Shown here in pieces: positions 13,611 to 61,701 of a stretch of 64,000 nucleotides of DNA. The notes beneath the pieces were generated by a model. That model ran no database searches and was not told the origin of the DNA. It was given only the letters and a program-made list of their open reading frames with translations. The stretch covers positions 62,001-126,000 of the forward strand of contig JBODTK010000152.1 in assembly GCA_050613775.1 (NCBI GenBank). The letters run 5' to 3'. Each line of letters begins with the position of its first letter. Position 1 is the stretch's first letter. The position numbers were made by a program, and so were the translations under genes. Source of the DNA: Neocallimastix sp. 'constans'. Lineage: Eukaryota.

Positions 13611-13627
13611 TGTAACGAATCCTAAAG

Positions 13628-14600: not shown

Positions 14601-14609
14601 TTGCTCCAT

Positions 14610-20513: not shown

Positions 20514-20714
20514 CTTTTAAACAAACAAAAATACGTTATAAATCAATAAAAAATATTTAAAACACGTGACTCTTTTGTGGCTTATTTGTGGCTTGAATCA
20601 AGATATTTTTACCAGATATTTTTACCAAGGATTTTTAGAAGCTACCCACTTTTGACACTACCGACTTTGGAATACTCACAATTTTAGATTATTGCTACCA
20701 GCTTTAGGATATCG

Positions 20715-21490: not shown

Positions 21491-21587
<97 letters not shown>

Positions 21588-38754: not shown

Positions 38755-38820
38755 AGTTGGTGTCGAACCCTAAGGGTTCAGCCCGATGATTATGGTAACT
38801 TATCATTGAACCGTAGTTAC
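38755..38820 (-). promoter_or_regulatory. tRNA-gene-like Pol III module inside LTR G
   Basis: Minus strand GTAACTA CGGTTCAATGA TAAG...GGTTCGACACC (B box 38759-38769), colinear with the module in A. The A box is degenerate. Confidence 0.65.
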
Positions 38821-39768
38821 TAATTTACTAGTTATGTGTTACGGTACAATTAAATAAAGAAAAATTAAACTATTTAAAGAAAATATTAAAGTAAAAAATA
38901 TCATTAACAATTATAAATAAATAATAAAAAATTGAATATTAAAATATTAGTTATAGAATATTATAAAGTTAAATAAAAATAATTAGATGTATTAAAAAAT
39001 CATGTATTAATTATATTATTTAATATTGTAAAATTTTTATATAATATTTTAATAATTTAGAAAATTTAAGCTTATTATATTTTTATTACTATATTTTTAT
39101 TATTAAATTTTTATTATTAAATTTTTATTATTAATTTTTTTTTATTTTTATTTTTAATCCAATCAAATAAATATTTTATTAGTATAAAAAAGAACAAAGT
39201 AACACAATACTTTTGTTCTCTCCCTTTTTTTCTTACGACTTTATTATTATATTATTTTTTTAATATTTTCTAAAAGTTAAATAATAAATTAAATAGTTTA
39301 AAATAAATTAAAATTTATTAAATAGTTTTTTCTAAATTTAATGTTTTAAAAGTGTTTAATTAATAGTTTTTTTGTGTTTAGTGTATAATATTAAGATAAG
39401 TATAGTATAAAATTAGTTTAGTAATAGATTAGTTGTATTAAACATTTTATAGAAATAGTAATAGATTTAGAGAAATTGTTTAGTTTAGATTAGAATAGTT
39501 TAGATTAAGATATTAGTTTAAGTTATTTTAACTTAGTTTAGATTCTTTTAGATTAGGATAGTTTAGACTAAAATTAGAGTAGTTTATTAATTAATTTAGG
39601 TTTAGAATTAGAGAATAATATTTTAAATTTTTCCTTATTATTAGAATATATTATTTTATTAATAAAATCTTCAGATCTTGTACCATAAAATTTGGCGAGC
39701 TATGCAGGACCTGAAGAGATAAAATAATATGAAAATAATAATTTGAGAAAATTTTAATAATTAATAAG

Positions 39769-39813
<45 letters not shown>

Positions 39814-40542
39814 TTATTCTAAAATATTATTAATAGTAGTTATAAAAAATTAATAATTATTAAAAAAAAAAAAAAAAATTTGTTATTTTTACTTTTTTGA
39901 GAATATTAAAATCAAAAAGTATAATAATTCATATACAGTGTTTAAACCGGTTGAAAATTAATTAGTAAAGAATTAGGGTGATTCCAATTTTTTACTAATT
40001 AAGGTTTTTAGTCGATCTCGTGAGTGCGTGAATACGTCCCAAAGTAATAATTATACTCCCCACGGCACTTTCCGTAGTTTATCAACTATCCGAGTGTTGT
40101 CAGGGTTTTTGGACAAGATCGAGCACTGGAACAATAATGAACTTATATCACCGAAGGTATAAGGTTTTCTTTTTTAGAATTATTATATTAATATAAAATA
40201 AAGTCGCGTCAACAATAAATAAATCGAAATATTCAGCAAAAATTTTTTCAGTTTATTAGCAATTAAAATTTCAATTCAGTAACAGTTTAATTTTTCAATA
40301 TTTAGTTATTTCAAAATTTAGTTTAATTAAGATATAAATTTTTTTTTTTAATCATTCATCCATCCATCAACTTAATAAAAATATACAATTAAAAGAATAT
40401 ATTAATTCATCAATTTAATAAATAAAACAATTAATTATAATAAAAATAATAAAAAATAAATTTATATAAGACATTTATCTCCTCATTCATCCATCAATTC
40501 ATCAATTAAATATTAAAAGCATTAGATTTTTTTTTTATCAAA

Positions 40543-41538
40543 ATGAAAATTTTAGAATTGGAAAGGCTATTACCCAGACTTAACGAAAGCGCAAGGGATG
40601 TCGATTCATGGATCGATGAATTTTCAAGAATAATGGCACTGGCTGATATCACCAATCCAAGAAGCATTCTTACCTGGGCAATGGAGTGTGTAGAAGGAAA
40701 GTTGAGGGGCACTTTACAAGAACTACATACAATAGATGAGGAAGGTAATGAACATTTTCCATCAATGAGAGAAATAAAAGAAGCAATTGAAAATTCATTA
40801 GAAGTAACTCCACAAGAGAAATGTAAAAGACTACAACGAATGAAAATTCAAAGAGGAGAAAGCATAAAAAACTTTAATTGGAGATATAGGAAAATTTATA
40901 ACAGTCTACCAAAATTGTACCAAACATTTATAACAATAGAAGATTATGCTGATTCGATTATCTACCGTCCTTATGCTAGATCACAAGTAATAACACAACG
41001 ATGTATAGATCTTGAAGATGCTTTTGAAGAAGCAGAGTTAGCTGAAAGAGCTGAAGAAGGAGGAAATCTTAAAAATGAAACCGTGATGATGACAGTATTT
41101 AATTCTCAACCATTCTATTACCGAAGTAACACTCATCCATTTAAGCAATTCAATTCTCCAAGTTATAATTATAATTATAATGGAAGACAATTTTACATTA
41201 AGAAAACTCCTCGAAATTATACAAATTATAATGAAAATAGAGAATTTACAACTAATAATTTTAATACTAAATTCAATTCTAAAAATGAAATTATGCAAAG
41301 TAATAATTTGGAAAATACCACACAAAATATTAAAGATAGTAAAATAAGAAATAACTTGGTAAATAATGAAATCAAACAAGCCAGAAATACATTTAATTCT
41401 GAGAAATCCCACATTATTTGTTACCGTTGTGGACAACAAGGACACATTTATAAACTATGTCCTTATTCCTTTAAAGAATTTGCTAAACTAAGAAATCAAA
41501 ATAATACAATAAATTTAAACAATCATTTAAACTTCTAA
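40543..41538 (+). CDS. D Gag
   Basis: 331-aa ORF with CYRCGQQGHIYKLC knuckle; similar to E Gag. Confidence 0.9.
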   Translation: MKILELERLLPRLNESARDVDSWIDEFSRIMALADITNPRSILTWAMECVEGKLRGTLQELHTIDEEGNEHFPSMREIKEAIENSLEVTPQEKCKRLQRMKIQRGESIKNFNWRYRKIYNSLPKLYQTFITIEDYADSIIYRPYARSQVITQRCIDLEDAFEEAELAERAEEGGNLKNETVMMTVFNSQPFYYRSNTHPFKQFNSPSYNYNYNGRQFYIKKTPRNYTNYNENREFTTNNFNTKFNSKNEIMQSNNLENTTQNIKDSKIRNNLVNNEIKQARNTFNSEKSHIICYRCGQQGHIYKLCPYSFKEFAKLRNQNNTINLNNHLNF

Positions 41539-44500
41539 ACGGGAGAAGGGAAACTCCCAGTAATCAAACCAATGATGAAATAGTAGCTACTGCAGTTAGA
41601 AGAAAAGGAAAACAAGTTTTTGAAAAACCATATTCAAGAGATAAAAGAAAACAAAATGAAAATAAAGTAAATGATAATATTTCTAATTCTAATAATATCA
41701 TACAAGAAGATAATGAAGATATAGAAATTGAAACCAACGAAATAAATACAATATCTAACACTCCTATAAATGAAACCGAAAGACTTGAGGAGATTGATGT
41801 GTCAGTTATTGCGCAACCCTCAATCAACAAAGCTAAACGAAATTCAAAGAAACAAAAAGAAAAAGAAATATTAGAAAGCACTAAGAATCTCGAGGTTAGT
41901 TCTAATAAAGAATCTAGAGTTAAACTTCCAAGTGTAGAATTAGAAGAGAAGAAAGTTAAAACCAACAATCCCAATAAACAAATAACCATTATGGAAGGTC
42001 AATCAAAATATGATATTTGTAAAGACATAAGTACTAGGTTTGCTAATATTACATTACCTCAATTATTGGATGTTAGTCCTAAACTCCGTGCTGATATTGT
42101 AAAGGCCTTAAAATTAAAAACTACAGAAACAATTAAAGAGACTCCTGAAGAAGTTGTATTATCTGCTATACGTAGGGAAGATGTTGCTACAGTTGAATGT
42201 TTAATTAATGGAGTCCAAGGTATTGCATTTTTAGATACAGGCGCAAGCATTAATATTATTACTAGACAATTTTTAAACAAGTTAGGAGATGTAAAACCAA
42301 TTGGATTTGTTAAAAATAATATTGTTCAATTATTATCTAAAGAGAATGTTAATACTGAAATCTACTTGCTAAAAGTTCAACTTGGAGATTTAGCTATTCA
42401 TGATATATTCCGAGTTATAGATAATCACCAAAACCTATTTGATGTTTTAATTAGCTATAAAACACTTAAAGAAAATAATTTATTTATTAATCCTATTAAT
42501 AATAATTTGTGCATAATGAAAGAAAATAACAAATGGATGTGTGTCAAAAATCTTTGCAAAGAAGAGAAAGGAAATGTTATTAGTGATGATGAAGATGCTG
42601 AATCAATAATTATATATGATAAAACAAATTCTGATATTAATAATAATTCCTATCTTTATTGCTTTGTTAATGAAATTGATAATATTAATAACAACTTAAC
42701 AATAACTCAAAATAAAATAGAAGACTCTAAAACAATAACTAAAGAAGTAGATATCATTAATGAAAATGGTGTTTTTGAAAAAGATCAACTCCTGCAAAAT
42801 ATACTTAAAGGAATTCCAAAAAAGCTAAGAAATGAAGTAAAAAAGTTATTTGATGAATATAATACTATTCTTGCCACAAAAATTGATGAGTTAAAACCAA
42901 CTAAATTGTTACCTCATAGTATTCAACTCGAGCCTAACGCTAAACCGATTAAACAGAGATGTTATCGACTTTCTAAAGTTCAAGCATTAGCTCTTAAAAA
43001 GGAATTAGAAAAACTTATAAAAAATAAACTAATTGAACCATCACACTCCCCTTGGTCTTCTCCCGTTATTTTAGTGCCTAAGAAAAATAAACAGTGGAGA
43101 ATATGTATAGATTTTCGAAAACTAAACAATCTTACTATTAAAGATGCATATTCGTTACCGCTTATAGATGAAATTTTATTTTCTATCGGGAAAAAAGTTA
43201 AAGTTTTTACTACGATTGATTTATTTTCGGGATTTCATCAGATCCCTATGAAAAAAGAAGATATTCCTAAAACTAGCTTTGCTACAATGTATGGTAACTA
43301 TCAATTCTTAGTTATGCCCTTTGGTTTATGCAATGCCCCAGGTACTTTTCAAAGGGAAATGAATAGAATATTCTTTCCTCTTATTGGAGTATGCATGTTT
43401 GTTTATATCGATGATCTAGTTATATTTTCACCCTCCTTTGAACAACATATTATAGATATTAAGAAAGTGTTTGATATTATCAAAGAAAATGGATTAAAAA
43501 TTAACTTAGAAAAATGTCATTTTTTTAAAATAAAAGTCGAATTGTTAGGACATACTTTATCAATTAATGGTATTTCCCCTATTCAAGCTAAAGTTCAAGT
43601 CATATTAGAATGGATACCACCAAAAAATGTTACACAATTACAATCTTTCCTTGGTGCAGTGGGTTATTACCGTAAATTTATTCTTAACTTCGCTAATATA
43701 GCAAAACCATTATTTAAACTTGTTAAAAAAGGTGTAAAGTTTGTCTGGGGTAAAGAACAAGAAGAAAGCTTTAATTAGTTGAAACTAAAATTAGCATCTA
43801 CTCCTATTCTTGTTATGCCTGACTTCGAAAAACAATTTATAATCAGAACGGATGCCTCTTTCGATGGTATTGGAGGTGTTTTACTTCAGAAAGATGAGAA
43901 TGGTATTGAAAAGCCAATTCACTTCGTAAGTCGCTCTTTAAAACCGGCGGAAAAGAATTATTCAATAACTGATCTTGAAGGAACTGCCGCGACTTACTGC
44001 GTTCAAAAATTTAAATCTTATATTTCTGGAAATAAAAATGAAACTCTTTTATTCACCGATCATAAACCTTTAGTTGGACTTTTCAAAAATAAAGAAACTA
44101 ACAATTCTAGACAAACTCGATGGGTATTACTTCTATCAATGCTAAAAGTTAAAGTCTTATATGAACCTGGAAAGAAAAATGTCATCGCTGATGCACTTTC
44201 TAGATTATCAACAAAAGAAAATACAATATTAACAACTGTTACTGAAGAGATAAATGAAAATAATCCGTATAACTTACTTACAAAATTTAAAGATAAATTT
44301 ACAATAATTAATAACGAAGAATATTATAAAGACCATGGAAAACTTAGAAAAGTTATAAAAAATCAAAACGAAAAAATTGATTTAATACTAAAAGCTCACA
44401 AAGTTGGTCACGAAGGAGTATTTAAAACTTACAATAGACTTAAACGTGACTACTATTGGATCAACATGATACTTGACGTTAAATACATTGTCAGAACTTG

Positions 44501-45437
44501 TGATAGGTGTCAACACTTTAGATCGCAATCTTTTAATAACCAAACAGAAGATATTGCTACTCAACCTGGTTTACCATTTACGAAAGTTGGCTTGGATATA
44601 GTAGGTCCACTTCCTACTTCAAGAAAAGGAAATAAATATATAATAGTTTTAGTAGATTACTTAACAAAGTGGGTTGAAGCAGAACCAACCCAAAATATTG
44701 ATTCAGATGATGTAATAGAATTTTTATCCAAGATTTTTGCTCGATTCGGAATACCAGAAATATTAGTAACTGATAACGGTCCATAGTTCTGTTCTGATAA
44801 AACAAAAGCATTCTTAGACTTATATGGTGTTTATGTTAACTTCGTTGTTACTTATCATCCAGAATCTAATGGTCAAGTAGAAAATCGAAACAAAGAAATA
44901 GGCAAATACCTTAGATTACTTTGTAATAAAAATACATCAATATGGGATGAAATGCTACCTAGTGCTTTATGGGCCTTGCGTACTTGTAAAAATGAAACAA
45001 CTAAATTTTCAAGTTTTGAATTGTTATATGGCCGACGTGACCTTCAGTCGTTTGAATTACAATTAAACTTAGATAAAAAGGAAAATTATGAAAGTGATGA
45101 TGAATTTTTAATTAGAAGATTTACAAAACATTATAAATGGATCAAGGAAGCCATAAATAATATTCAAACAGCAAACAAAATCTGGGAAGATAGAAGAAAA
45201 CAAGTAAAAAGACTTAAAGCTAATTATAAACCAGGAGATCTAGTATTAATCAAATATATTAATAGAAGAAAACTTGATCCATACTTCTTAGGTCCTATGA
45301 AAATTGTTAAAAAACAATTCAATACTGTAACGTTATGTGATCCATTAACAAACGAAATTGCTGAAAGAAATGTCCACTTAAAGAATATTATACCTTATAG
45401 ACTATGCGAAATTGAGACTTCAAGGGACGAAGTCTGA
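41526..45437 (+). pseudogene. D pol (-1 frame) with two premature TAG stops (about 43778 and 44786)
   Basis: FLDTGAS, YIDD, TDAS, HHCC and integrase core. Three track ORFs lie in one frame separated by single stops. Confidence 0.9.
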
Positions 45438-46307
45438 ACTTAGGGGTGGCATCATGTTACGGTACAATTAAATAAAGAAAAATTAAACTATTTAAAGAAA
45501 ATATTAAAGTAAAAAATATCATTAACAATTATAAATAAATAATAAAAAATTGAATATTAAAATATTAGTTATAGAATATTATAAAGTTAAATAAAAATAA
45601 TTAGATGTATTAAAAAATCATGTATTAATTATATTATTTAATATTGTAAAATTTTTATATAATATTTTAATAATTTAGAGAATTTAAGCTTATTATATTT
45701 TTATTACTATATTTTTATTATTAAATTTTTATTATTAAATTTTTATTATTAATTTTTTTTATTTTTATTTTTAATCCAATCAAATAAATATTTTATTAGT
45801 ATAAAAAAGAACAAAGTAACACAATACTTTTGTTCTCTCCCTTTTTTTCTTACGACTTTATTATTATATTATTTTTTTAATATTTTCTAAAAGTTAAATA
45901 ATAAATTAAATAGTTTAAAATAAATTAAAATTTATTAAATAGTTTTTTCTAAATTTAATGTTTTAAAAGTGTTTAATTAATAGTTTTTTTGTGTTTAGTG
46001 TATAATATTAAGATAAGTATAGTATAAAATTAGTTTAGTAATAGATTAGTTGTATTAAACATTTTATAGAAATAGTAATAGATTTAGAGAAATTGTTTAG
46101 TTTAGATTAGAATAGTTTAGATTAAGATATTAGTTTAAGTTATTTTAACTTAGTTTAGATTCTTTTAGATTAGGATAGTTTAGACTAAAATTAGAGTAGT
46201 TTATTAATTAATTTAGGTTTAGAATTAGAGAATAATATTTTAAATTTTTCCTTATTATTAGAATATATTATTTTATTAATAAAATCTTCAGATCTTGTAC
46301 CATATGT

Positions 46308-46946
46308 TGATACGGAACTAACTAATAATTCGTATTATACTATTGGAAATTATAATTAAGTTTAATAACTTTATGTATTAAATATTTTAAACTATTTTTA
46401 TAATTCCAAAATTTTATTCTTAATTTAAAATAATTATATAAATTATCAAATTAAATTGATTAATGACTAATTATTAAAAAATTATTATTTAATTAAATTG
46501 ATTAATGACTAATTATTAAAAAATTATTATCTTATATTAATTAAATTGTTTTATTATTATATTTAATTATTATTAATATTAAATTGTTTCAAGAATTATA
46601 TTATCAAAAATATTACCAATAATTTTATTGTTAAATTTTTTAATTTTATCATTAATAATATTTGTCATTAAAGATAATATTAATTATATTAGTATTAATA
46701 TTTTTATTATTAAAATAACTCTTAAAAAATATTATTTAAAATCACATGTAATAATTATACTAATAAGAATTAAAATAATTTAAATTATTATAAAAATTCA
46801 TGTAGTAAAAAAGTATAAAAGAAAAAGAAAATACTTAATAAAAAATCAGGAGTTAAAAAAATAAAAAAAAACTGGAAATTGAAATTAAATTATTAACTAA
46901 TATATTATTTTCATTTTTTTTTGAAGTTTATTGTGTACCTGCACCA
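46308..46946. mobile_element. Solo LTR H1
   Basis: tgatacgg...gcacca; TSD atgt; near-identical to H2. Confidence 0.88.
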
Positions 46947-46949
46947 ATG

Positions 46950-47649
46950 TGTAATAATCTATTTATAATATACTAACTATAACTAGATTATTAATATTTT
47001 AAGATATAAAAATTTATACTTAACTTTATATAGAGTTTATTATAAACACTAAATATTGAAATAAACAAAAAGACTTTATTTTCTTTTAATTTATTATATA
47101 GCATTATATAATAATAACTCTAATTTCTTTAATCAAAGAAATTTGAGTTCTTTTATACTTTTTTATTTATAATTATTTTAATAGATGAAATTATTAAATA
47201 GATGTAATTATTAAATAAATAAAATAGATAAGATAAAGTTAACAAATCAAATAAAGGTATCTAATCTTAACAAATTGATATTCAGGAAAAGATTAGTAGA
47301 AAAACCTGAATAACTTCGATTAATATTCTAATATATTAATCATCGTATTAATTAATAAAAACCCAATCATAATAATATTGGGGAAAAAATTAATTAACCG
47401 ATTACTAAAATCTTATTAATTATCAACTAATTGAAATAATAAAATATAAATAATATTTTTAAGTAATTTTTTTTTTTTTTAAGTAATTAATACATTACAA
47501 CAAATTTGTTTACATTATTTTTCAATATATTAATTTGGATAAATTAATATATTTTTTACATGTTAATAAATATTGAAATATAAATGAAATATAAATTAAT
47601 TAAATAAGAAGATAGATTATTTTATAAGAAATAAATCTATATTCTTACA
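46950..47649 (-). mobile_element. Solo LTR I (B family)
   Basis: tgtaataatc...ttcttaca; right TSD ttatg; B-family motifs. Confidence 0.85.
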
Positions 47650-47652
47650 TTA

Positions 47653-48123
47653 TGGTACGGGACGCCCTGATAACTATGAAATAAGCAATAAATTTGAAAA
47701 TAAAGTTATAAGATTAAATATTTAAATTTTTAAAAAAATAAACAATTATAACCTTAAATTAGATAAAAAAGAATATAAAAAGATGTAAATAAGAAAATAA
47801 TTATAAGGAGAGAGAGATCAGAAAGAAAAGAAAGAAAAAAAAATATAAATAGGACAAAAATATAAAAAAATGTAGTGTAGAATGGAGATATAATAAGAAA
47901 TAAAAATATATAGTTAGTTAGATTATAATAAAAATGTAGTAATTAAAATAATGTATAATTAAGTAATATAATAAATAAAAAAAAAATATTAATAAAATAA
48001 TAAAAAAAAATATTTTAATAATAAATAAATAAAAGTTCTTAATTTATGTGTTTATTCAATTTAGAATAATTTATCTTAACTAGAGAAGTGTCAAAAAAGC
48101 CCAAGGTACAATAACACGAACCA
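47653..48123. mobile_element. Solo LTR J
   Basis: tggtacg...cgaacca inverted ends; right TSD gtta. Confidence 0.8.
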
Positions 48124-48129
48124 GTTATT

Positions 48130-49059
48130 TGTAAAGAATAATAATTAATTTTTATTAAAATAAAAAATAATTATTAATCTTTATTAAAATAAAAAATAAT
48201 TATTAATCTTTATTAAATAAAATAATAATTATTTAATAAAATTTATTAACTTTATTATAAAATATTTTTAATATAAAATTATTATTAATAATTTAAAATT
48301 AATATTGTAAAATTATTATTCTTTATCATTGTATTAATTAATAATATTAAAATAATTAAACATTAATATTTTTTATATTTGTTAAAATTCATTTGATAAT
48401 TATATGTTAAGTTTTAATTTAAATAATTGTTACATTAATATAATTTTAAACAAATCTAATATAAATTATAGAATTATAATTTAGAAATAATTATAAAATT
48501 ATATTAAAATCATAATGTAACAAATCAAATGAAAAAAGAATAATTAATATTTAAAAAATTAATTAAAATAAAACAATGTCATGTATAATTGACATTGTTT
48601 AAATAAAACAAATGTTAATTGAAGTTTTCCGATTGGAAAATATCGGTTTTTATTCAATTAACATATGATCAATTTTATTAATAATTGATCATTAAACTTT
48701 TTAGGTTTTTCTCCCAAATCTTTTCCTAAAAAGTTATTCATTAAGATTTGGAACTTTACTATAAATAATTCTTGATTTTCTTTATTTTGAAAATCAAGAG
48801 TTATTATTATAAGAATATAATTATAATAATAAACAAAATAAATTTTTAATTTTTTAAAAATAACAAAAATCTAAATAAAAATTATTTTTAATAAAAAATA
48901 TTTTAATAAAAATTTTATTTGAACTAATCTCTTATAATAAACTCCTACCCTATTTTAAGTTTCGTTAAGTATTTTCTTTTTTTTTAATTTCTCGATTAAT
49001 ATTAGTATTAATTGTAGAAAAGGGTTAAATTTAATTAAGTTTAAATTTAATTCTTTACA
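48130..49059 (+). mobile_element. Solo LTR K (B family)
   Basis: tgtaaagaat...attctttaca perfect inverted ends; TSD ttatt on both sides. Confidence 0.88.
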
Positions 49060-49096
49060 TTATTGGAACGTTACGTTCAGAAAAATATGAATTTCT

Positions 49097-49128
<32 letters not shown>

Positions 49129-49499
49129 TTTAAATTATTTAAATTTATATTTAATTAGTTTATATGAATAAGTAAATAAATAATGATATTTATTTAACAA
49201 ACAATTAAATTATTAAATTAAAGTATATTTTTAATTAAAAGTTAGTATTTTTATTTATGTAAATAATAAACTAAATAGTTAAATAATTTTAAATTACTAA
49301 TATTTCTAAATAATATGTATTTAAAATAAATATTTTTAATTATTTTTAATATGTATTTAAAATAGATATTGTTTATTATTTTTAAGGTATATTTAGTTAA
49401 AATATATTAATTCAATTTATATTAACAATTAAATTGTATAAAAATTATAAAATAAAAATTAGGAAAATAATCAAATAGTATAAAAAAATATTAAATTAA

Positions 49500-49536
<37 letters not shown>

Positions 49537-49791
49537 ATATAAATAGGAAATTTTACAAAAATAAATTTTTAGGAAAAAATAATAATATTAATAAAATAAA
49601 ATAAAAATAAATAAAATATTATAAAAATAATTAATATAGAGCATTACGTCCCAAATTTCTGGTGGAGAATCCGGGCGTATGCTCTATGAAATATTATATA
49701 CCATTATAAAAAAAAATTATATATATAACTTGTTATAAAATATTTATATAAAAAAAATATATATTGCTAAACATAAACTTAATAATACACT

Positions 49792-50784: not shown

Positions 50785-53700
50785 AGGATGGGAGAAGGAA
50801 AACTTCCAGTAAACAAACCAGCATACTTACAGCTAATCAAGAGCTGAATGACCAAGTCCATACTACAAATGCACATGCCGAAGTCGTTATTCCAGCAATA
50901 AAGAAGAACATCCCTAGAAACCAGAGAAATACTCCCTATGCTAAACCAAGGTCAATAAATAACTCTGATTTAAAAGAAAATCCAGTGCCTATATCAACCC
51001 CTGCTATGGTTTATAATTCACAACCACAACAACAAGAAAGAACTAAAAATACAAAAGTTAAGAAGAAGGAAAATGTCAACGCTATTACCAACCAACAAGG
51101 GAACTCCAACGACTTAGCCGAGAACAGGGAACCAGTAGATATGGAAATGAATCCAGGGGAGTCAGAACAAGTAACTAAAACTGCTAATACTTCTCGGTTA
51201 GATCAATTAGATTTGTCTTATTTAGCCGAGAAAAGAATAGAACCCGTTAAACGAAGTAATAAAGAGGAGAGGCTGAAAGAATTAAGAGAAGGTAGCCTGA
51301 ATGAAGATAAAGAACAAGACCTGGCTGAAAGGGTGACGAATCTAGAACGTCACATCCGCTTGATGGACGGGTTTGAAGAATATCTAATAGAGGACCTAGT
51401 GGATAAGGTAGCCGACACTGAAGTTGGTACCAAATTAGTCCATTTATTTGATCTCTTTCCAAAGTTTCGTTCGGCTTTCCAGAAGAAATTAAAGTTAAAG
51501 CCAAAAACAACATCAAAAACAATTACCAATGAAAGTGTGATCACTAATGCAGTAAATGTAATAAGTGAAAATAAAATCTCAAAAGTTTATGGGCAAATAG
51601 AAGGACAAAATGGCGAAATCTTTCTAGACTCTTGTGTTAGTATTAATATGGTTACTCGTGCTGCTTTGAAGAAGTATAAAATAAACAAAAAGCCAGTTGG
51701 AAACATCACCGAAATGATATTACAAGCATATATCAATACTACTATGTCTTCCGATATCTATGAACTAGAGATCTCTATAGGACCAGTAACTTTTAAAGAT
51801 TATTTCAGAGTTATTGAAAAGGACGATCTATTTGAATTATTAATTGGGGTAGATTCACTTAAGAAACATAAATTAATACTAAACTTTAATGATGATACGT
51901 TGTATACTACTGATAAAAATAATTTCCCAATAAGACTTGCATCAATTTATTACGATTTACGTTTAAATGCTGACGACGAAAATAATGAGACCTCAGAAGA
52001 AGTGGAAGAAGTAGATGCAAGTAAACCAGTAAATATAACCGTGTCCCTGATTACAGCAAATGAAGAGTCATTGGATAATAAGGAAACACGTGTTGAGAAA
52101 ATTATTAATTTAATCCCAAAAGTGGTTAAGGATCCAGTTACCAAGCTGTTCGAAGATTTTAAAGACATTTTGGCCATGAAAGCAGACGACTTGAAACCAA
52201 CCAAACTTCTACCACACAGGATCATACTCAAACCAGGAAGCAAGCCAGTCAAACGGCGAGCATACCGTTTATCGAAGATTCAGGCTCAAGCGTTAAAGAA
52301 AGAGTTAGAAAAATTGATAAACAATGGCCTGATAGAACCTTCCCACTCTCCTTGGTCCTCTCCAGTAGTATTAGTTTTAAAGAAAAATGGTCAATATAGA
52401 ATGTGCGTGGACTACCGGAGAGTTAACAGTTTAACAGAAAAGGATGCGTACGCTCTACCTCTCATTGACGATATCCTTAGTTACATTGGAAGGAATCAAG
52501 TTCTATCAACTATTGATCTATTTTCGGGTTACCACCAAGTGCCAATGTACCCGGAAGATCAAGAGATAACTTGTTTCACAACACTTTATGGAAATTATAA
52601 CTTTAAGGTCATGCCCTTTGGGTTGTGTAACGCTCCCGCAACCTTCCAAAGGGAGATGAATAGGATTTTTTTTAACTTAATTGGTAAGAGCGTTTTTGTT
52701 TACATTGACGACTTGGTTGTTTTCTCTCCTTCTTATGAACAGCATGTTAAGGATCTTAGCGAGGTTTTCACCATACTACAAGATAACGGATTGAAGTTGA
52801 ACTTGGAAAAATGCCATTTCTTTCAAGAAGAAGTGGAATTGTTAGGTCACGTCTTATCTACCAAAGGTATACAACCAATTCCTGAAAAGGTGAATGTTAT
52901 TTATAATTGGATCCCTCCAAAAGATGTATCTAAACTTCGTTCATTTCTAGGAGCAGTTGGGTATTATCGAAAGTTTATTAAGGACTTTGCCCAAATTGCC
53001 AGTCCACTTTTTCAGTTGTTAAAGAAAGATTCAAAATTTGAGTGGACTAAGGAATCCGACTTAGCTTTTAAGACTCTCAAAGAAAGATTAATACAGGCCC
53101 CTATACTAATACCACCGGATTTCAATAAACCATTCATTATAAGAAGCGATGCATCTCGTACTGGAATTGGAGGCGTCATCATACAAAAGGATGATAATGG
53201 AGTTGAGAAACCAATTCATTATGTTAGTAGAGCGCTGCGGAAGGCTGAAACTAACTATAGTGTTACCGATTTAGAGGGAACTGCAGCATTATACTGCATA
53301 AAGAAATTTAAATATTATATTTTAGGAAATAACTTAGTTACTTCATTGGTGACGGATCACAAACCCCTAGTTGGAATCTGCAATAATACGGAGCCCTCTA
53401 ATAACCTCCATTTAAAGTGGGTAACTACGTTAAGTGCTCTTCAGGTTAAGGTTCAATTTGAGGAGGGAAGGAAGAATGTTATTGCCGATGCTCTGTCCAG
53501 GATGGATACTATGAAAAAAATAGAAGAATTGGAGAAGAAAGGTAATGAAGTGGTACTCGTCTCGCAAAATATTGAAGATTTTATCAAGAGTAGAATCGTC
53601 GAAATAGAAGGAAAGAAATATTATAAACAAAACGGAAGACTTAGGAAAATAGTTGACAACGAAGAAGAAAAGTTAAAGTTGATTGAAGCTGCTCATGCCA

Positions 53701-54707
53701 TAGGTCACGAAGGTATTTATAAAACATACCATCGGTTGAAACCCAATTATTATTGGAAAGGAATGAATAGAGAAATCCAAACCTATATTAGATGCTGCCC
53801 AAAATGCCAAATGTATAAACGCCAAAAGCAAAATGAAAATGTAGAAAACTTACCAACCAAGCCGGGATACCCATTCTCCAGAGTCGGATTGGATCTTGTT
53901 GGACCGTTACCAAAGACAAGAGCTGGGAACAAATATATAATAGTCTTAGTGGACTATTTAACTAAATGGGTGGAAGCTGAACCATTAAAGGAAATTGGTT
54001 CAAATGATGTAATAAGATTTCTAAAAAAAGTATTTGCTCTTCATGGGGTTCCTGAGCTGTTGATTACAGATAATGGGCCACAGTTTTACTCAGATAAGAC
54101 CAAAGCTTTTTTGGATCTCCATGATGTTTACGTAAATTATGCAACTACGTACCACCCCTCGACCAATGGAGAAGTCGAAAACAGGAACAAGGAAGTTATT
54201 AAGTATTTAAAATTATTAGCCAACGAAGAAGATGATTGGGATGAGATTCTACCCAGTGCTTTGTGGGCCTTGAGGACATGCAAAAATGAAAGAACAAAGT
54301 TTAGTAGTTTCGAACTATTGTATGGACGCCAAGATCTACAACCATTGGAATTAACATTAAATAAGGAAAGTAGGAATAAATATGAAAAGGAAGAAGAATA
54401 TTGGCTCCAGAAATTCATACAACACCACAAGTGGATCAAGGAAGCAGTAGAAAATATCGAGACTGCAAATAAACTATGGAGTGACCGCCGTAAACAAATA
54501 AGAAGAATGCGTTCGTATTATAAACCAGGGGATCTAGTATTAGTCAAGGTTTTCAATAGAAGAAAGTTAGATCCATACTTTACCGGACCTTTAAAAATAA
54601 TAAAAAAGGAGTTCAACACCGTTACTGTCTGTGACCCGATATCTGGGGAAATTGCTGAAAGAAATATACACTTAAAGAACGTAATTCCCTATTTTTCTGA
54701 ATTATAA
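50775..54707 (+). CDS. E Pol (PR-RT-RH-IN), -1 frame, no chromodomain
   Basis: Open 1326-codon frame; FLDSCVS (atypical protease motif), YIDD, SDAS, HHCC, ITDNG..E. Confidence 0.92.
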   Translation, partial: FKLEDGRRKTSSKQTSILTANQELNDQVHTTNAHAEVVIPAIKKNIPRNQRNTPYAKPRSINNSDLKENPVPISTPAMVYNSQPQQQERTKNTKVKKKENVNAITNQQGNSNDLAENREPVDMEMNPGESEQVTKTANTSRLDQLDLSYLAEKRIEPVKRSNKEERLKELREGSLNEDKEQDLAERVTNLERHIRLMDGFEEYLIEDLVDKVADTEVGTKLVHLFDLFPKFRSAFQKKLKLKPKTTSKTITNESVITNAVNVISENKISKVYGQIEGQNGEIFLDSCVSINMVTRAALKKYKINKKPVGNITEMILQAYINTTMSSDIYELEISIGPVTFKDYFRVIEKDDLFELLIGVDSLKKHKLILNFNDDTLYTTDKNNFPIRLASIYYDLRLNADDENNETSEEVEEVDASKPVNITVSLITANEESLDNKETRVEKIINLIPKVVKDPVTKLFEDFKDILAMKADDLKPTKLLPHRIILKPGSKPVKRRAYRLSKIQAQALKKELEKLINNGLIEPSHSPWSSPVVLVLKKNGQYRMCVDYRRVNSLTEKDAYALPLIDDILSYIGRNQVLSTIDLFSGYHQVPMYPEDQEITCFTTLYGNYNFKVMPFGLCNAPATFQREMNRIFFNLIGKSVFVYIDDLVVFSPSYEQHVKDLSEVFTILQDNGLKLNLEKCHFFQEEVELLGHVLSTKGIQPIPEKVNVIYNWIPPKDVSKLRSFLGAVGYYRKFIKDFAQIASPLFQLLKKDSKFEWTKESDLAFKTLKERLIQAPILIPPDFNKPFIIRSDASRTGIGGVIIQKDDNGVEKPIHYVSRALRKAETNYSVTDLEGTAALYCIKKFKYYILGNNLVTSLVTDHKPLVGICNNTEPSNNLHLKWVTTLSALQVKVQFEEGRKNVIADALSRMDTMKKIEELEKKGNEVVLVSQNIEDFIKSRIVEIEGKKYYKQNGRLRKIVDNEEEKLKLIEAAHAIGHEGIYKTYHRLKPNYYWKGMNREIQTYIRCCPKCQMYKRQKQNENVENLPTKPGYPFSRVGLDLVGPLPKTRAGNKYIIVLVDYLTKWVEAEPLKEIGSNDVIRFLKKVFALHGVPELLITDNGPQFYSDKTKAFLDLHDVYVNYATTYHPSTNGEVENRNKEVIKYLKLLANEEDDWDEILPSALWALRTCKNERTKFSSFELLYGRQDLQPLELTLNKESRNKYEKEEEYWLQKFIQHHKWIKEAVENIETANKLWSDRRKQIRRMRSYYKPGDLVLVKVFNRRKLDPYFTGPLKIIKKEFNTVTVCDPISGEIAERNIHLKNVIPYFSEL

Positions 54708-54790
54708 CCAATTAAAGGACTTCAAGGGACGAAGTCTACTCTTAAGAGGGGACGTCTTGGAACGTTACGTTCAGAAAAATATGAATTTCT

Positions 54791-54863
<73 letters not shown>

Positions 54864-55226
54864 AAATTATTTAAATTTATATTTAATTAGTTTATATGAA
54901 TAAGTAAATAAATAATGATATTTATTTAACAAACAATTAAATTATTAAATTAAAGTATATTTTTAATTAAAAGTTAGTATTTTTATTTATGTAAATAATA
55001 AACTAAATAGTTAAATAATTTTAAATTACTAATATTTCTAAATAATATGTATTTAAAATAAATATTTTTAATTATTTTTAATATGTATTTAAAATAGATA
55101 TTGTTTATTATTTTTAAGGTATATTTAGTTAAAATATATTAATTCAATTTATATTAACAATTAAATTGTATAAAAATTATAAAATAAAAATTAGGAAAAT
55201 AATCAAATAGTATAAAAAAATATTAA

Positions 55227-55269
<43 letters not shown>

Positions 55270-55393
55270 ATATATAAATAGGAAATTTTACAAAAATAAA
55301 TTTTTAGGAAAAAATAATAATATTAATAAAATAAAATAAAAATAAATAAAATATTATAAAAATAATTAATATAGAGCATTACGTCCCAGTTAT

Positions 55394-56891
55394 TGATACG
55401 GGGTGTCACTAAATACCTTGTATTTCCTATTAAATACTCTTAATAATAATAAAATAAAATTATTATTAAATATTCTTATTAAAATCTTTTATTAATATCA
55501 AATATAATAAAAATTATTATTAAATATTCTTATAAATTTCTTTTATTAATATTAAATATAATAAAAATTATTATTAAATATTCTTATAAAATTCTTTTAT
55601 TAATATTAAATATAATAAAAATTATTATTAAATATTCTTATAAAAATCTTTTATTAATATTAAATATAATAAAAATTATTATTAAATATTCTTATTAAAA
55701 TCTTTTATTAATATCAAATATAATAAAAATTATTATTAAATATTCTTATAAAAATCTTTTATTAATATTAAATATAATAAAAATTATTAAATATTCTAAT
55801 AAAAATCTTTTATTAATATTAAATATAATAAAAATTATTATTAAATATTCTTATTAAAATCTATTATAATAAAAATTATTATTAAATATTCTTATAAAAT
55901 TCTTTTATTAATATCAAATATAACAAAAATTATTATTAAATATTCTAATTAAAATCTTTTATTAATATCAAATATAATAAAAATTATTATTAAATATTCT
56001 TATAAAATTCTTTTATTAATATCAAATATAATAAAAATTATTATTAAATATTCTTATTAAAATCTTTTATTAATATCAAATATAATAAAAATTATTATTA
56101 AATATTCTTATTAAAATCTTTTATTAATATCAAATATAATAAAAATTATTATTAAATATTCTAATAAAAATCTTTTATTAATATTAAATATAATAAAAAT
56201 TATTATTAAATATTCTTATTAAAAATTATATAATATTTAAATCATTATTAATTCTTATTTTTATATTAAGAATAATAAAAACCTATTTCAATAAATATTT
56301 GATATAAAATACAGAATTATAAGTTTCTGTATAATATTTTCTAAACCTTTGAAATAAACTAAAAATAAATCAAAAATCAAAAATAAATTAAATCTTTATT
56401 AAAAATAAAAATGAACTAAAATACAGAATTTCAATAATAAAAAAATGATCTAAAATACAGAAAATATCAATTCTGTATAATTCTCTCTCTGAAAAACAAT
56501 ATCAAGAAGAAGCTACCGCCCGGAATGCCCTTCGTGATACAATCTCCAAATTAATTTTTTATATTTTAATTTAATAAATGTTATTTTTTTTTTTTAAAAA
56601 ATAATTTAAAATAATAGTTAAAAATTAAAATAAAATAGTTATAATAGTTTTTTTTTTAAAGAATATATTAATAATAAATAAAATGTATTAAAATAAAAGT
56701 ATAAAAAGAAGAATAAATTTCTTTCTTTTTAATACTGGGAACAAATAATTTTAATTTTAAATTTAAATAAAGAATATTTTAAAATTTAATTTTTTTTTTT
56801 CTTGTTTCCAAACTTATTTTTATAGTTATGTGTTAATATTTATTTTTTTTTTGTTTTGAATATCTTAGTGTTTCAACCCCAGCCCGTATCA
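55394..56891. mobile_element. Solo LTR L (1.5 kb) containing a 54-bp tandem array (about 55450-56225)
   Basis: tgatacggg...cccgtatca perfect 9-bp inverted ends; TSD ttat. Confidence 0.82.
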
Positions 56892-56895
56892 TTAT

Positions 56896-57932
56896 TGATA
56901 AATAACAAAATTATTAAATTAAAATAAATAATAAAAAAACAAATTCTGTCTAACTTAACCCAAAAATTAATCCATTCTAAAAAAAAAAATTAAATCCATA
57001 TTTAAGAAAAATTAATTAAATAAAAATAATTAAAATAAAATAATAATAAATTAATTAATCATTAATAATTTTAATTAAAAACTAAAATAAATTAATAAAT
57101 AATATTTTTCTAAGACTACAAATAAACAAAATAATAAACATATTTAATAAATTATAAACAACAAATAAACAAACTTATAAACAACGCAAAATTAAAATTA
57201 AATAGTTAAATAATTTTTTAAGTTACTTTTATTTAAAATAATGATTATTTTATTTATTTTATAACTCAACTTTTATAAACAAATTGTAATTAAAATAACA
57301 TTTTAAAACTCATCTTTATCAACATTTTAATTGTAAATATTGTTTAATTTAATAATAAATTATTCTTTATTTCTCTTTTATTAATTTTATTATTTTTAAT
57401 GTAAATAGTTTAAAATCAAAGAAAAATATAAAAACATGTAAATATTTCTTATAAATTATTCTTTATTATTAATTAGTTAATAAATTATTATAAATATTTT
57501 ATTAGTTTTAATAATCAAAAAGTATGATTATTAATTATTTAATAAATTATTATAGATATTTTATTAGTTTTTAATAATCAATTTTTATGATTATTAATTA
57601 TTTTTGATAAATTATTATATATTTTATTAGTTATTAATAATCAATTTTATTATTAAAATTTAAAATAAATTAGTATAAGTAATAAATATTTCATTTTATT
57701 ATTTTATTAGTTTTAACAATTATTTTATTAATTTAAACAAAATTAATTATTAAATAAATAAAGATTAATATTAAAATAAAAATAAATTTTTTTAATAAAA
57801 CATTTTTGTGTTTAATAATAAAACATATTTATTTTTTTTAAATTTCTTAAATCAATTTTATTCAGTATTTATCCTTTTATTCACTTCTACAAAATTTAAT
57901 TTTTGTAGATTAAGAATATTAGGTATAAATCA
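56896..57932. mobile_element. Solo LTR M
   Basis: tgat...atca ends; TSD ttat on both sides. Confidence 0.75.
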
Positions 57933-57936
57933 TTAT

Positions 57937-58655
57937 TGATACGGAACTAACTAATAATTCGTATTATACTATTGGAAATTATAATTAAGTTTAATAACTT
58001 TATGTATTAAATATTTTAAACTATTTTTATAATTCCAAAATTTTATTCTTAATTTAAAATAATTATATAAATTATCAAATTAAATTGATTAATGACTAAT
58101 TATTAAAAAATCATTATTTAATTAAATTGATTAATGACTAATTATTAAAAAATTATTATTTAATTAAATTGATTAATGACTAATTATTAAAAAATCATTA
58201 TTTAATTAAATTGATTAATGACTAATTATTAAATAATTATTATCTTATATTAATTAAATTGTTTTATTATTATATTTAATTATTATTAATATTAAATTGT
58301 TTCAAGAATTATATTATCAAAAATATTACCAATAATTTTATTGTTAAATTTTTTAATTTTATCATTAATAATATTTGTCATTAAAGATAATATTAATTAT
58401 ATTAGTATTAATATTTTTATTATTAAAATAACTCTTAAAAAATATTATTTAAAATCACATGTAATAATTATACTAATAAGAATTAAAATAATTTAAATTA
58501 TTATAAAAATTCATGTAGTAAAAAAGTATAAAAGAAAAAGAAAATACTTAATAAAAAATCAGGAGTTAAAAAAATAAAAAAAACTGGAAATTGAAATTAA
58601 ATTATTAATATATTATTTTCATTTTTTTTTTGAAGTTTATTGTGTACCTGCACCA
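57937..58655. mobile_element. Solo LTR H2
   Basis: Same family as H1; TSD ttat on both sides. Confidence 0.88.
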
Positions 58656-58660
58656 TTATG

Positions 58661-59561
58661 TGTAAGAAATACAAATAAATTTATTAATAATTCATTTACA
58701 TTTCTTAGTTATTATAATTTATTTAATTTAATATTTATTTATTCATTTAATAATATAGTCATTTTATTTAACTTTATATTTATTTATTCATTTAATAATT
58801 ATAGTTATTTTATTTAATTTTATAATTATTTATTCACTTATATTTATATATTAGTTTAGAAAACAATATTAAGGTTTTTCCCAAGTTAATTGGTTTTACT
58901 TAATATTGATTCATCTAGAGTTTTTCCGCTAATCTTTTCTCTAGATGTAAAAAAGTTAAGGTTAGCAAAACTTTCAATAAATTATTTAATTTTATATTTT
59001 TTTTGGTTAATTATAATTTTTAATTTTAAATATACTACTTCCTATATAATAATGAATTTATACAAATTCATTAAGTAAAGGGAGCAATGTAAGAAACTTA
59101 GATAAATTTATTATAAAATTTATCTATCTTTCTCATTTAATGCATTAATTTAATACATTAAATTATTGTATTTATTTTAACCAATAATATTTAATTATTA
59201 ATTTATATATATCTGATTCTCTTGAGTTCTCTTCGAGAAATCAAGAGTTATTATTTTAGAATTTTTATAATAAATAATAATTCAAATAAAATAATTAATT
59301 AATAAAACAAAACCCTTTTAATAAAACATTTTTTATAAATATTTGTGTCTTTTATTCCTTTTGTGTTATTGTTTATTATAAACTTTCTATAATAAACTCT
59401 ATCTTATATTTAAGTTAAGTATAATTATTTATTTATATTATTTTATATTTATTTAATTATATTTAATTTTATTTTCTCAAATTAATGTTAATTAGTAATA
59501 ATTAATGTTAATTTGTAGTTAAGAAATTATTTATAATTAATTTTATAAGTAATTTCTTACA
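58661..59561 (+). mobile_element. Solo LTR N (B family, with an internal PPT-LTR junction)
   Basis: tgtaagaaat...atttcttaca; TSD ttatg on both sides. Confidence 0.82.
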
Positions 59562-59568
59562 TTATGTG

Positions 59569-60402
59569 TGTTAGAAATTGAAATAAAATTTCTTTTATAT
59601 CAATTTCTAATCTACAATTTTATATTAATAATATTATTATTAACTAAAATTGAGAAATTTAAATTTGTTTTATTAAAATAAATCGAGTTTATTATAAGAA
59701 AATTTAAATAAATTTAATTTTTTTTAAGATTAAAAAAGAATAAATTTGTTGTTATTAATTTATAAAATTTTATTGTTATTATTATTTTTCTTATAATAAT
59801 AACTCTTAATTTCTAAAAGAACTTAAGAGTCTCTATTTATACTTTTTCAAAATTTTAAATTAAATATTGTCTAATCTTAACAAATTTCTTATTTAGGAAA
59901 AGATTAGAAGAAAAACCTAAATAAGTTTCGATTAATATTCTAAACATATTAATCATCGGATCATTAAGTAAAACCGATACCAATCAGTATTCGGGAAAAC
60001 CTTAAAGATCGATTTTCTAATTATTTTTATAATAAATAATTTTAATTAAATGTCCAAAATAAATAATAAAAAAAAATTAAAAATTGAAAAAATTTGTCCA
60101 AATTTAGAAAAAATTTTTTGTTATGAAAAATTTTAAATAATTTTTGATTATGTCTAAACATTTAAATAACAATTATAACGAATAAATATTAACTAATATT
60201 AATAAAATTTTTAATTATTAAGTTTAACTAATAATTGGTTAACTACTCCTAATTTTTAAATAATTTTACATGTAATAGTTATAGTACATTGTTACAAAAT
60301 AAATAATGATAATGTAAAAATAATGTATTTCTAATTATTAAGTATTTAATACATAATAAGAAATAATAATTAAAATTTAAAAATTTATTATTATTTCTTA
60401 CA
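59569..60402 (-). mobile_element. Solo LTR O (B family)
   Basis: tgttagaaat...atttcttaca; TSD atgtg on both sides, which duplicates the TG of P. Confidence 0.85.
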
Positions 60403-60405
60403 ATG

Positions 60406-61371
60406 TGATAAAGAATGCCCAAATAATGTTCTTTTGGTTATGCATCTTAAATGATTCATTTAACCCTTAAACAAATTATTTGATTCTTTATTCTTTTGGA
60501 ACTTTCTATATTCTAATAAATTAATCTATATTCCTAATTAGTACAAATTAAATTATACTATTTAAAAAAGTATATTTAATATTAATTCCTTATCTATGCT
60601 ACCTTTATTATTCTTATCTATATTTTATTATTATTAAAATCCTTATCAATATTATATAGTTTATTTTATCAATTTTCTTTATAGTTTATCAAAATCTTAT
60701 CAATATTTCTTTTATTAATATTAAACTTATCAATATCAATTATTTCTTTGGAAAATTCCAAATTAAAAAATTGTATTAATGATTACTAATAAAAGATTAA
60801 ACATAAAAAGAAATAATTATATTATTATTATATGTTTTATTATAAATATTATATTATAAATTTGATGAAATGATTATAAATTTTATATTAATAATTTAAA
60901 TAATATTATTTTTCTAAACTTAGTAAAATTAAACTTTAGGATTAAATAAATATTACTAAACCACAGAATTAACTTCTGTAAAATAAAAAAATTTGTCTTT
61001 TAAAATATATAATTAAGTAGATTAGTAATAAATAATTAGTAATAGATTAATATATAAGTATTATTTATTATAAGTTAAAGAATAATTATATTAATAATAA
61101 AAAATTAATATAAAATGTTTAATAATTAATTTTTATTATACAAAGAAATGGCTTTACCATTTCTATTATTTTAAGAAAAAAAAAATATAAATAACAGTAA
61201 AAAAATTGTATTTTTTTATATTGTAATTTAATATTGTAATTTTTAAATAAAATTTTAATAAAGGATTTATAAAACAAAAATTTATTTTGTTTATTAATTT
61301 TCTTGTTTGTTTATTTTTTATTGTTTATATTAATACTTATTTTTATTTTTCCCTCTCTCCGAACCTTAACA
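60406..61371. mobile_element. Solo LTR P; oldest member of the stack
   Basis: tgataaag...ccttaaca; right TSD tatg, followed by the last 12 nt of G. Confidence 0.8.
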
Positions 61372-61701
61372 TATGAGTTTCGTTACAACCCGGTATTAGC
61401 CGGATATCAAAGGTTCGTTTACGATCAATTTTGTGCCACTGTTAACCATCCGGAGTAATGGTTCCTGGAGGAGGCAGTGTCAAGAACTGACGATATTTGT
61501 ACTGTGATTAAATTAATCCATTATTGGATTAATTAAATTTATAAAATTTAATGAAAAATTAATAATTTTAACTTAATATTTAATTATATAAGTGAATCAA
61601 TAGTAATTGTTTAAATAAATTTTAGTTTAGTTAATGAATAGTTGAATAAACAAATTAAAAAATCATTTAGCAGAATTAAAATATAATAATCTACTATATG
61701 C

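Follow-up and report, generated by a model that had tools for sequence, protein, structure and literature searches.

The 64,000-nt stretch of DNA analysed here (the window) carries a solo LTR, G, that holds a stack of twelve LTR-type inserts, comprising two full Ty3/Gypsy elements and ten LTR-sized units. The promoter-side part of G (nt 13-574; 38275..38836, minus strand) sits in the integrase end of element F, and its terminus (nt 1-12; 61376..61387, minus strand) has been pushed 22.5 kb away by the stack. All twelve inserts start with TG and end with CA, separated by 11 spacers of 3-7 nt each. Stepwise excision from the left yields an exact duplication for every insert (seven of 4 bp, five of 5 bp), each within G-LTR nt 11-18, at the target heptamer AGTTATG (G nt 19-13; 38830..38836, plus strand). 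Once all twelve are removed, the two parts rejoin as a 574-nt LTR (38275-38836 plus 61376-61387, minus strand) flanked by its own target-site duplication (TSD), ACCCG, at 38270-38274 and 61388-61392, and aligned colinearly with an uninterrupted LTR of the family (30842-31371). The first-pass annotation, which described 12 insertions stacked at one 8-bp spot whose removal restores G and its TSD, is borne out. Its statement that the spacers are all fragments of the heptamer holds for their length and not for their purity, since TATGT, GTTATT and TTATGTG are impure fragments arising because four inserts (H1, I, K and O) lie 1-2 nt within the terminal TG of the adjoining next element. A further AGTTATG at 56824 is internal to L and marks no junction.

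From left to right, the stack begins with the full Ty3/Gypsy element D (38837..46302, plus strand; TSD TATG), followed by the solo LTRs H1 (46308..46946; ATGT) and I (46950..47649, minus strand; TTATG), the LTR-sized unit J (47653..48123; GTTA), which has TG..CA termini and no internal region that we could see, and the solo LTR K (48130..49059, plus strand; TTATT). The second full Ty3/Gypsy element, E (49064..55388, plus strand; GTTAT), precedes the solo LTR L (55394..56891; TTAT), the LTR-sized unit M (56896..57932; TTAT), the solo LTR H2 (57937..58655; TTAT), the LTR unit N (58661..59561, plus strand; TTATG), the solo LTR O (59569..60402, minus strand; ATGTG) and the LTR-sized unit P (60406..61371; TATG). 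An assembly artefact joining AT-rich repeats might be suspected here, as the solo LTRs of the region have 10-17% GC with long homopolymers and the array is known from the assembly alone. This is extremely improbable, because mis-joins would not produce exact duplications of 4-5 bp twelve times over, independently and with different families, in such a way that taking out the inserts restores a colinear LTR with its own TSD. Moreover, the element in which G sits has two LTRs that fit as well.

The LTRs of D are identical at 847/848 positions, and the element has a tRNA-type primer-binding site (PBS), no chromodomain and two in-frame stops in pol (43776 and 44784). The LTRs of E are identical at 586/586 aligned nt apart from homopolymer gaps; it has an open 1329-aa pol frame, also without a chromodomain, and its best PDB match is Ty3 Gag-Pol (E 6e-109). 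Together with element C, described below, D and E show the Ty3/Gypsy pol order PR-RT-RH-IN by Pfam, and a Pfam chromodomain is absent from all three of these coding elements at the site type. In a quick RT tree that excluded stretches of less than 250 aa, the three fall in two lineages, a D/E clade and a C clade. The earlier claim of two full elements and of both orientations proved correct, with I and O reverse and K and N forward relative to the LTR of C. The LTRs had also been called unrelated to one another in several cases, which is too broad: patches matching at 67-81% connect I, K, N and O with one another or with the LTR of C, and H1 and H2 match at 632/633 aligned nt. L contains an internal 54-nt tandem repeat of 14.7 copies, and its termini resemble those of the D/E-clade element L013. 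N contains a look-alike of a polypurine tract (PPT) plus LTR start at 59080; a reading of N as two LTR halves gained no support, with an alignment score of 83 against a shuffle maximum of 85.

The placement of these inserts could reflect a short TTAT-like sequence preference, in which each duplication remakes the word and the stack grows without a promoter. Of the duplications, 8/12 contain TTAT or TTATG/GTTAT, and the TSD of element A, a relative of G, is also GTTAT. However, 1175 TTAT/ATAA sites within the inserts and 28 within G lack an insert while all twelve events used a single spot, two complete AGTTATG words, within D and L, are likewise empty, four duplications (TATG twice, ATGT and GTTA) contain no TTAT, another is ATGTG, and the site used in the A copy is TAAAG. 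We regard a simple sequence preference as highly improbable. The order of insertion is informative as well. In all 7/7 relations that the TSDs force, the younger element lies proximal to the promoter boxes of G described below, and in none distal; the determinant therefore lies towards the boxes rather than at the terminus of the LTR. A strictly proximal order is compatible with the TSDs, which admit about 10 million of 479 million orders, so that the full order is not fixed. These relations bear on whether elements simply docked end to end on the terminus of an earlier LTR, leaving only the first event, P, in need of a separate cause. Each insert does adjoin an LTR terminus, four overlap the TG of a neighbour, and 11-18 nt separate the site from the terminus of G itself. 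Yet the forced order is box-proximal throughout, the cut stays constant at nt 11-18 from the box side regardless of which LTR end lies beyond, and no tandem neighbour adjoins other LTR ends of the window (B, F, Q and the 3' end of A), which makes end docking very unlikely.

The box side of G contains tRNA-type promoter motifs, the likely cause of the stack, which the first-pass annotation did not mention. An A-box-like motif with two mismatches to the consensus (taken from PMC5391098) lies at LTR nt 36-46 (38803..38813, minus strand). A B box matching its consensus exactly lies at nt 80-90 (38759..38769, minus strand), 44 nt past the A-box start, and a T5 run at nt 114 (38731..38735, minus strand) is a candidate Pol III terminator. 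The same layout of A box, B box 44 nt on and T run is common to G, element A and two metagenome relatives, L001 and L006, the T run being T5-T6 at nt 113 in the latter three. The B box is exact, the A box has 1-2 mismatches and the spacing is 44 nt in all four copies; for L001 and L006 the conserved B box is a circular result, the pattern that retrieved them having required it, whereas the A box was absent from that pattern. In shuffles of G nt 1-160, a comparable box pair near the same place arose in 1/20000, and the window holds 2 box pairs against 0.12 in shuffled windows. At the five other insertion sites in the window (A, B, F, G and Q), no B-box-like motif occurs within 150 nt (0/5). Neither ARAGORN nor Rfam finds a tRNA in the LTR, and the motif corresponds to no Rfam family. 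Single-strand folding is weak (z -1.0 to -2.1), with three double-sided changes in 25 predicted pairs across the four sequences, and an RNA structure is not claimed on account of these values.

The distance between inserts and boxes fits that of a Pol III target. With a virtual +1 at G-LTR nt 29, which places the A box at +8 as in PMC5391098, the insert ends lie 14-18 nt upstream in 12/12 cases. According to the available text of PMC6101501, DGLT-A inserts 13-18 bp and Ty3 ~15 bp upstream, and the offset in G, as computed from this virtual start, matches both. The first-pass annotation had drawn an analogy to Ty3 and DGLT-A; the parallel is closer than it stated, as A and B boxes are present within the LTR, suitably distant from the insertion site. 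These features suggest that the A/G LTR probably bears a TE-borne Pol III promoter that decoys Pol III-targeting retrotransposons. TFIIIC would bind the LTR boxes and position TFIIIB, and integrases of at least two lineages (the D/E clade and the C clade) would dock on the resulting complex. The promoter, lying wholly to one side of the site, would survive every insertion; for that reason new elements would land between the boxes and older inserts, pushing the latter outward. LTR-LTR recombination would later reduce most inserts to solo LTRs.

Another host protein or chromatin feature on the U3 part of the A/G LTR could instead set the position, with integrases that do not read the A/B-like motifs. 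Other blocks within nt 19-100 equal the A box in conservation (15/33 invariant columns in nt 47-79 versus 4/11 in the A box, four copies), each of the four copies keeps a 7-bp hairpin over the B box, where one change is double-sided, and the A box of G is degenerate, the weakest of the four, though G holds twelve inserts. On the other hand, the insert-to-box distance equals that of Ty3 and DGLT-A while the TATA box of the LTR is ~330 nt off, and the site is common to two RT lineages, which fits a shared ancient host complex. We consider a different positioning feature unlikely.

A second family copy, element A, allows a comparison with G. Its intact 3' LTR (30842..31371, plus strand) shares ~70% identity with G and carries an A box at 30877-30887, a B box at 30921-30931 and a TATA box at nt 312; it contains no insertion, despite a better A box than that of G. 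Of the 5' LTR, the first 17 nt remain (13611..13627, plus strand; 17/17 identical to the start of the 3' LTR), after which it is broken and the remainder is missing. The break falls at the position homologous to the G target and was made by C, in the sequence TAAAG, unlike the G site. C (13628..18831, minus strand) abuts A at nt 17, with its 3' LTR at 13628-14600 and gag-pol to 18831; its 5' LTR is missing, and its target duplication is not checkable because its other end is deleted. C has an SH3 end without a chromodomain and an RT of the chromovirus lineage, to which the self-priming element Tj1 is also assigned. In sequence-specific element-into-element targeting of the Tx1/Dada type, the target sequence is conserved. 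Here, in contrast, conservation at the start of the LTR is lowest over nt 10-18, with 1/9 columns invariant in the four copies, and the G and A sites differ. Twelve events within 8 nt of G, the homologous break in A in a different sequence and the poor conservation of the target agree with the earlier proposal that G is a position-specific, mobile and reusable target. Its further idea of a trap or safe haven, taken as a function under selection, gains no such support.

A and G belong to a chromodomain-bearing Gypsy family, whose intact relative L001 encodes a 1396-aa gag-pol. The ORF of A (28144..30474, plus strand; a 776-aa frame) contains gag, a partial protease region, the integrase end and a chromodomain, the RT/RNase H core being deleted relative to L001; the chromodomain (PF00385) scores E 3e-17 in A and 2e-15 in L001. 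Directly behind its LTR, L001 has 10 nt that form the complement of a stretch within the LTR, ~40 nt past the TATA box, and A and G contain this stretch too; judged by this complementarity, the A/G PBS is of the self-priming type, pairing with the LTR itself. Another chromodomain element in the window, B (19731-27499), is not at an A/G-type target site.

A metagenome pattern search for A/G LTRs returned 11 loci, of which L001 and L006 are true relatives; the other nine are GC-rich, without similarity to the window, and were rejected. In both relatives the LTR starts are uninterrupted and each LTR is preceded by a PPT and followed by a PBS-like stretch, and because of these bounds they look like collapsed family assemblies that are uninformative on occupancy. 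A stricter LTR pattern gave no match in viral or genome contigs, and a DNA search of four MAGs gave short AT-rich matches only. Protein scans of the viral contigs returned no relative of A, E or L001, and two distant relatives with an alignment. The genome contigs gave 31 loci, nine of them D/E-clade elements, none showing a flank, and further searches added no LTR flanks of relatives. ARAGORN found no tRNA gene near D/E/C relatives in the 22 scanned of 33 loci or in 11 further contigs; the nine close relatives end inside LTRs or earlier. The stack is known here from a single instance.

Ty3 of S. cerevisiae, Tj1 of S. japonicus and DGLT-A of D. discoideum are Ty3/Gypsy elements that target Pol III start sites, as described in the portions available of PMC5911963, PMC6101501, PMC6673722 and PMC4600332. 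The stack resembles them in its elements' Ty3/Gypsy domain order, in its 4-5 bp duplications and in an insertion window only a few bases wide at a similar distance upstream of +1. It differs in that the target is a motif pair in another retrotransposon's LTR, not a host tRNA, 5S or U6 gene, and in that a single site has received twelve insertions, from two RT lineages, in what is likely a neocallimastigomycete host.

Pol III boxes in LTRs have a precedent. According to the accessible part of PMC10886601 (Kojima 2024), the LTRs of Helenus, Cassandra and Ajax (TRIMp3) have conserved A and B boxes without a functional tRNA fold, and occur as solo LTRs with 5-bp TSDs. The Helenus elements are non-coding, tRNA-primed TRIMs of 311-1263 bp whose autonomous partners are argued not to share the Helenus-type LTR sequence, and that part holds no report of insertions targeted to such LTRs. 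The A/G LTR is similar in carrying both boxes in 4/4 copies (the B box in two being required by the search). The A/G family differs in being coding, with gag-pol and a chromodomain in L001, rather than a TRIM under ~1.3 kb, and in having a TATA box, a self-priming-type PBS and no recognisable tRNA-derived sequence. In its gag-pol with SH3 and chromodomain, LTR-complementary PBS and 5-bp TSD, the family resembles Tf1/sushi-type chromoviruses as they appear in the available text of PMC4600332; we found no report in the literature of tRNA-type boxes at the U3 start of such elements.

A/B boxes can attract the non-LTR element TRE5-A, which inserts ~47 bp upstream, even where the body of a tRNA gene is lacking, and repeated TRE insertions next to tRNA genes build up TRE-TRE tandems whose members do not enter one another (PMC5391098). 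Both the attraction by boxes alone and the tandems of uninterrupted elements recall the stack, whereas the A/B loci in that study lie on the rDNA palindrome and those here on a mobile LTR. The parts are thus known separately from Ty3, Tj1, DGLT-A and Helenus; we found no description, in the literature searched, of Pol III-targeting inserts on TE-borne boxes, and the combination is apparently undescribed; PMC10085805 contained nothing that bears on it.

Beyond this locus, we tentatively propose, as a possibility somewhat short of an even chance, that a widespread autonomous gut-fungal chromovirus with a working LTR Pol III promoter scatters tRNA-gene-like sites in repeat-rich chromatin, which unrelated Pol III-targeting lineages would reuse via TFIIIC/TFIIIB, leaving ordered stacks from which the history of transposition could be read. 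It is a guess that the boxes benefit the A/G family itself, as a barrier or as a promoter; the landing pad may be a side effect. If a TE-borne decoy promoter is correct, the 'safe harbour' of tRNA-gene-targeting retrotransposons would itself be mobile, with one element setting the landing place of others, and chromodomain and Pol III factor targeting strategies would be linked within one genome. Pol III targeting would also reach a fungal phylum that diverged early and whose genomes are rich in repeats, a setting that its usual explanation by compact, gene-dense genomes fits poorly. Helenus- or Cassandra-type LTRs and SINEs would then be predicted to act as decoys wherever Pol III-targeting elements are active. 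The site-specific integrases could prove useful for fungi in which genetic engineering is difficult.

Twelve LTR-bounded units, each running TG...CA and separated by gaps of 3–7 nt, occupy positions 38837–61371 inside G, a minus-strand solo LTR (38275–38836 and 61376–61387). Stepwise removal from the left gives an exact duplication for all 12 inserts, of 4 bp for D, H1, J, L, M, H2 and P and of 5 bp for I, K, E, N and O, and every duplication falls within nt 11–18 of G. What remains is a 574-nt LTR with the target-site duplication (TSD) ACCCG, colinear with the intact 3′ LTR (30842–31371) of A, an element of the same family. The pile-up at one 8-bp spot described in the first-pass annotation is thereby confirmed. 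Its reading of the spacers as AGTTATG fragments holds for most of them, but four duplications take in the first 1–2 nt of the neighbouring element, which accounts for the spacers that deviate from it. I, K, N and O, found in both orientations, are all kin to the LTR of C, a minus-strand element at 13628–18831. J, M and P were named LTRs from their termini and duplications only. The L and H termini resemble the LTR of a D/E-clade element in the metagenome locus L013. A division of N into two LTR halves was not supported, as the halves align no better than shuffles; at 59080–59097, N contains a look-alike of a PPT plus LTR start that resembles C's PPT junction.

The LTR pairs of the two full Ty3/Gypsy elements, D and E, are identical at 847/848 nt and 586/586 aligned nt, and H1 matches H2 at 632/633 nt. 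By comparison, the LTRs of F, which holds G and must be older than it, differ by 10 mismatches in 531 nt, from which it follows that the stack is recent and built up fast. Exact duplications permit about 10 million of 479 million insertion orders, among them the full left-to-right order. They force seven pairwise relations, and in all seven the box-nearer element is the younger, which fits a position determinant on the side of the boxes described below rather than at G's terminus, since the first event pushed the terminus away. A box-side determinant would survive every insertion.

Sequence preference is very unlikely as the cause of this clustering. There are 1175 TTAT/ATAA sites in the inserts and 28 in G, and the full heptamer AGTTATG occurs twice inside inserts, both times without an insertion. 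Moreover, A's 5′ LTR matches its 3′ LTR at 17/17 nt before C's LTR takes over, at a site that reads TAAAG and lies outside the coordinates of the first-pass annotation; the remainder of this LTR and C's other LTR are absent from the window. Across four family copies, conservation within the first 100 LTR nt is lowest at nt 10–18 (1/9 columns). The proposal of a position-specific, mobile and reusable target is supported by 12 events in nt 11–18 and a second break in a different sequence.

In both G and A, a B-box consensus scan matches at LTR nt 80–90, and an A-box-like motif at nt 36 starts 44 nt before it, the A box of G being the weakest among the copies. GC content is 44–49% across nt 29–100 and 16–19% in the remaining LTR, and a T5–T6 run lies at nt 113–114 in all four copies. 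Only 1 of 20,000 shuffles of G nt 1–160 yielded such a box pair near that place. Among 11 metagenome loci that matched a search pattern, two are true relatives (L001 and L006, 80–84% identity to G) with the same A–B spacing and one mismatch in the A box; because the pattern included the B box and not the A box, only A-box conservation is independent. ARAGORN and Rfam detected no tRNA or Rfam family in the LTR unit, folding support is weak, and the unit is not a tRNA. The weak A box of G and the lack of an insert in A's 3′ LTR count against the boxes as determinant; the LTRs of L001 and L006 have no interruption either, but these two loci resemble collapsed assemblies. In L006, a truncated Gypsy pol in opposite orientation (796–3117) adjoins the PPT region ~50 nt ahead of the LTR of A/G type, through either an insertion or a mis-join. 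L001 (1–6833) and A agree almost exactly over the ~40 nt that lead into the LTR, PPT included, while their LTRs differ by about 30%.

With the A box at +8 of a tRNA (PMC5391098), the virtual +1, a tRNA-like start, falls at LTR nt 29, and the insert ends lie 14–18 nt upstream of it. This offset resembles those known upstream of tRNA genes for DGLT-A (13–18 bp) and Ty3 (~15 bp; PMC6101501), although here the start is a virtual one within an LTR. For Ty3, most insertions fall inside a 20-bp interval close to the start site, at about −13 (PMC6673722). Reviews cover how Ty3, Tj1 and DGLT-A target Pol III start sites (PMC5911963, PMC5006619, PMC7175516), and PMC5391098 describes TRE–TRE tandems as well as insertion at A/B boxes that stand alone. 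The tRNA-type boxes would fix insert position upstream of the virtual +1, and a transposon-borne putative Pol III promoter probably serves as a reusable insertion target. More tentatively, a chromovirus family could scatter mobile Pol III-type landing sites genome-wide for reuse by several retrotransposon lineages. Insertion at nt 17 would leave the TATA region intact in a 5′ LTR and would probably harm the element in a 3′ LTR, so the suggested trap may be no selected function but a side effect of boxes retained for another purpose. No tRNA gene was found in the window, nor beside relatives in the 22 loci scanned out of 33 and in 11 further contigs, which counts against Pol III targeting, though the nine close relatives end inside their LTRs or earlier. 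Helenus LTRs also carry tRNA-type boxes, but as described in PMC10886601, whose supplements may list autonomous cases, these are short non-coding TRIMs, whereas the A/G relative L001 encodes gag-pol. Full-text searches of the literature, exclusive of most subscription papers and Repbase, found no report of A/B boxes in the LTR of an autonomous chromovirus serving as a target, nor of Pol III targeting in Neocallimastigomycota.

The gag-pol of L001 is open over 1396 aa and includes an SH3 domain and a chromodomain; the PBS of L001 is complementary to its own LTR, as in self-priming elements (PMC4600332). The ORF of A derives from such a gag-pol by internal deletion (two blocks, 60% and 74% identity). 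More than 20 near-full-length relatives of the A/G family share 60–87% identity, and one of them carries a name, from Pecoramyces. A quick RT tree of 48 rows places D and E in a clade of 24 rows (SH-aLRT 99), and B (a chromodomain element, 19731–27499), C, F and L001 in a separate 8-row clade (SH-aLRT 100), where C groups with L084 and L092 as a distinct subgroup. C and D/E being in different clades, the site is used by at least two RT lineages. A chromodomain is present in A and B; Pfam called none in C, D or E, nor the similar-looking tail of F. No B-box-like motif lies within 150 nt of the other five insertion sites (A, B, F, G and solo LTR Q). E's pol has a named relative from Pecoramyces (Orpinomyces) at 79% identity, which makes an anaerobic gut fungus the most likely host.

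In D/E-clade elements, long gaps of ~5–8 nt separate the LTR from the PBS and the PPT from the LTR (39685–39691, 45447–45454, 49654–49659 and 54751–54757; also L013, L014, L018 and L019). Their tRNA-type PBS sequences differ among D, E and L013, and duplication length within the clade is 4 bp for D and 5 bp for E. By eye, a short GC-rich block is common to the 5′ leaders of C (18890–18970, minus strand) and L001 (near the gag-side end) and may be a leader feature with RNA or DNA structure in these Gypsy elements.

The window has a GC content of 24.5% and contains no N; from 15 kb on, its long frames mostly encode retrotransposon proteins. A broken Copia-like element forms the outermost layer of the nest, holding A (13611–31371, TSD GTTAT), which contains C and B, and F (32613–62782), which contains G at its integrase end and Q in its 3′ LTR. 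B's 5′ leader carries about ten copies of an 81-nt tandem repeat (20690–21496), followed by a ~90-nt poly(A). At 605–5467, a 51-nt unit repeated ~95 times in tandem is open on the plus strand as a frame of 1620 aa that has no Pfam match. One contig recorded under a prokaryotic MAG (L091, G003:C5) is 99.4% identical to the D internal region (39942–43954); several gut MAG records contain such retrotransposon contigs, which are likely fungal contamination.
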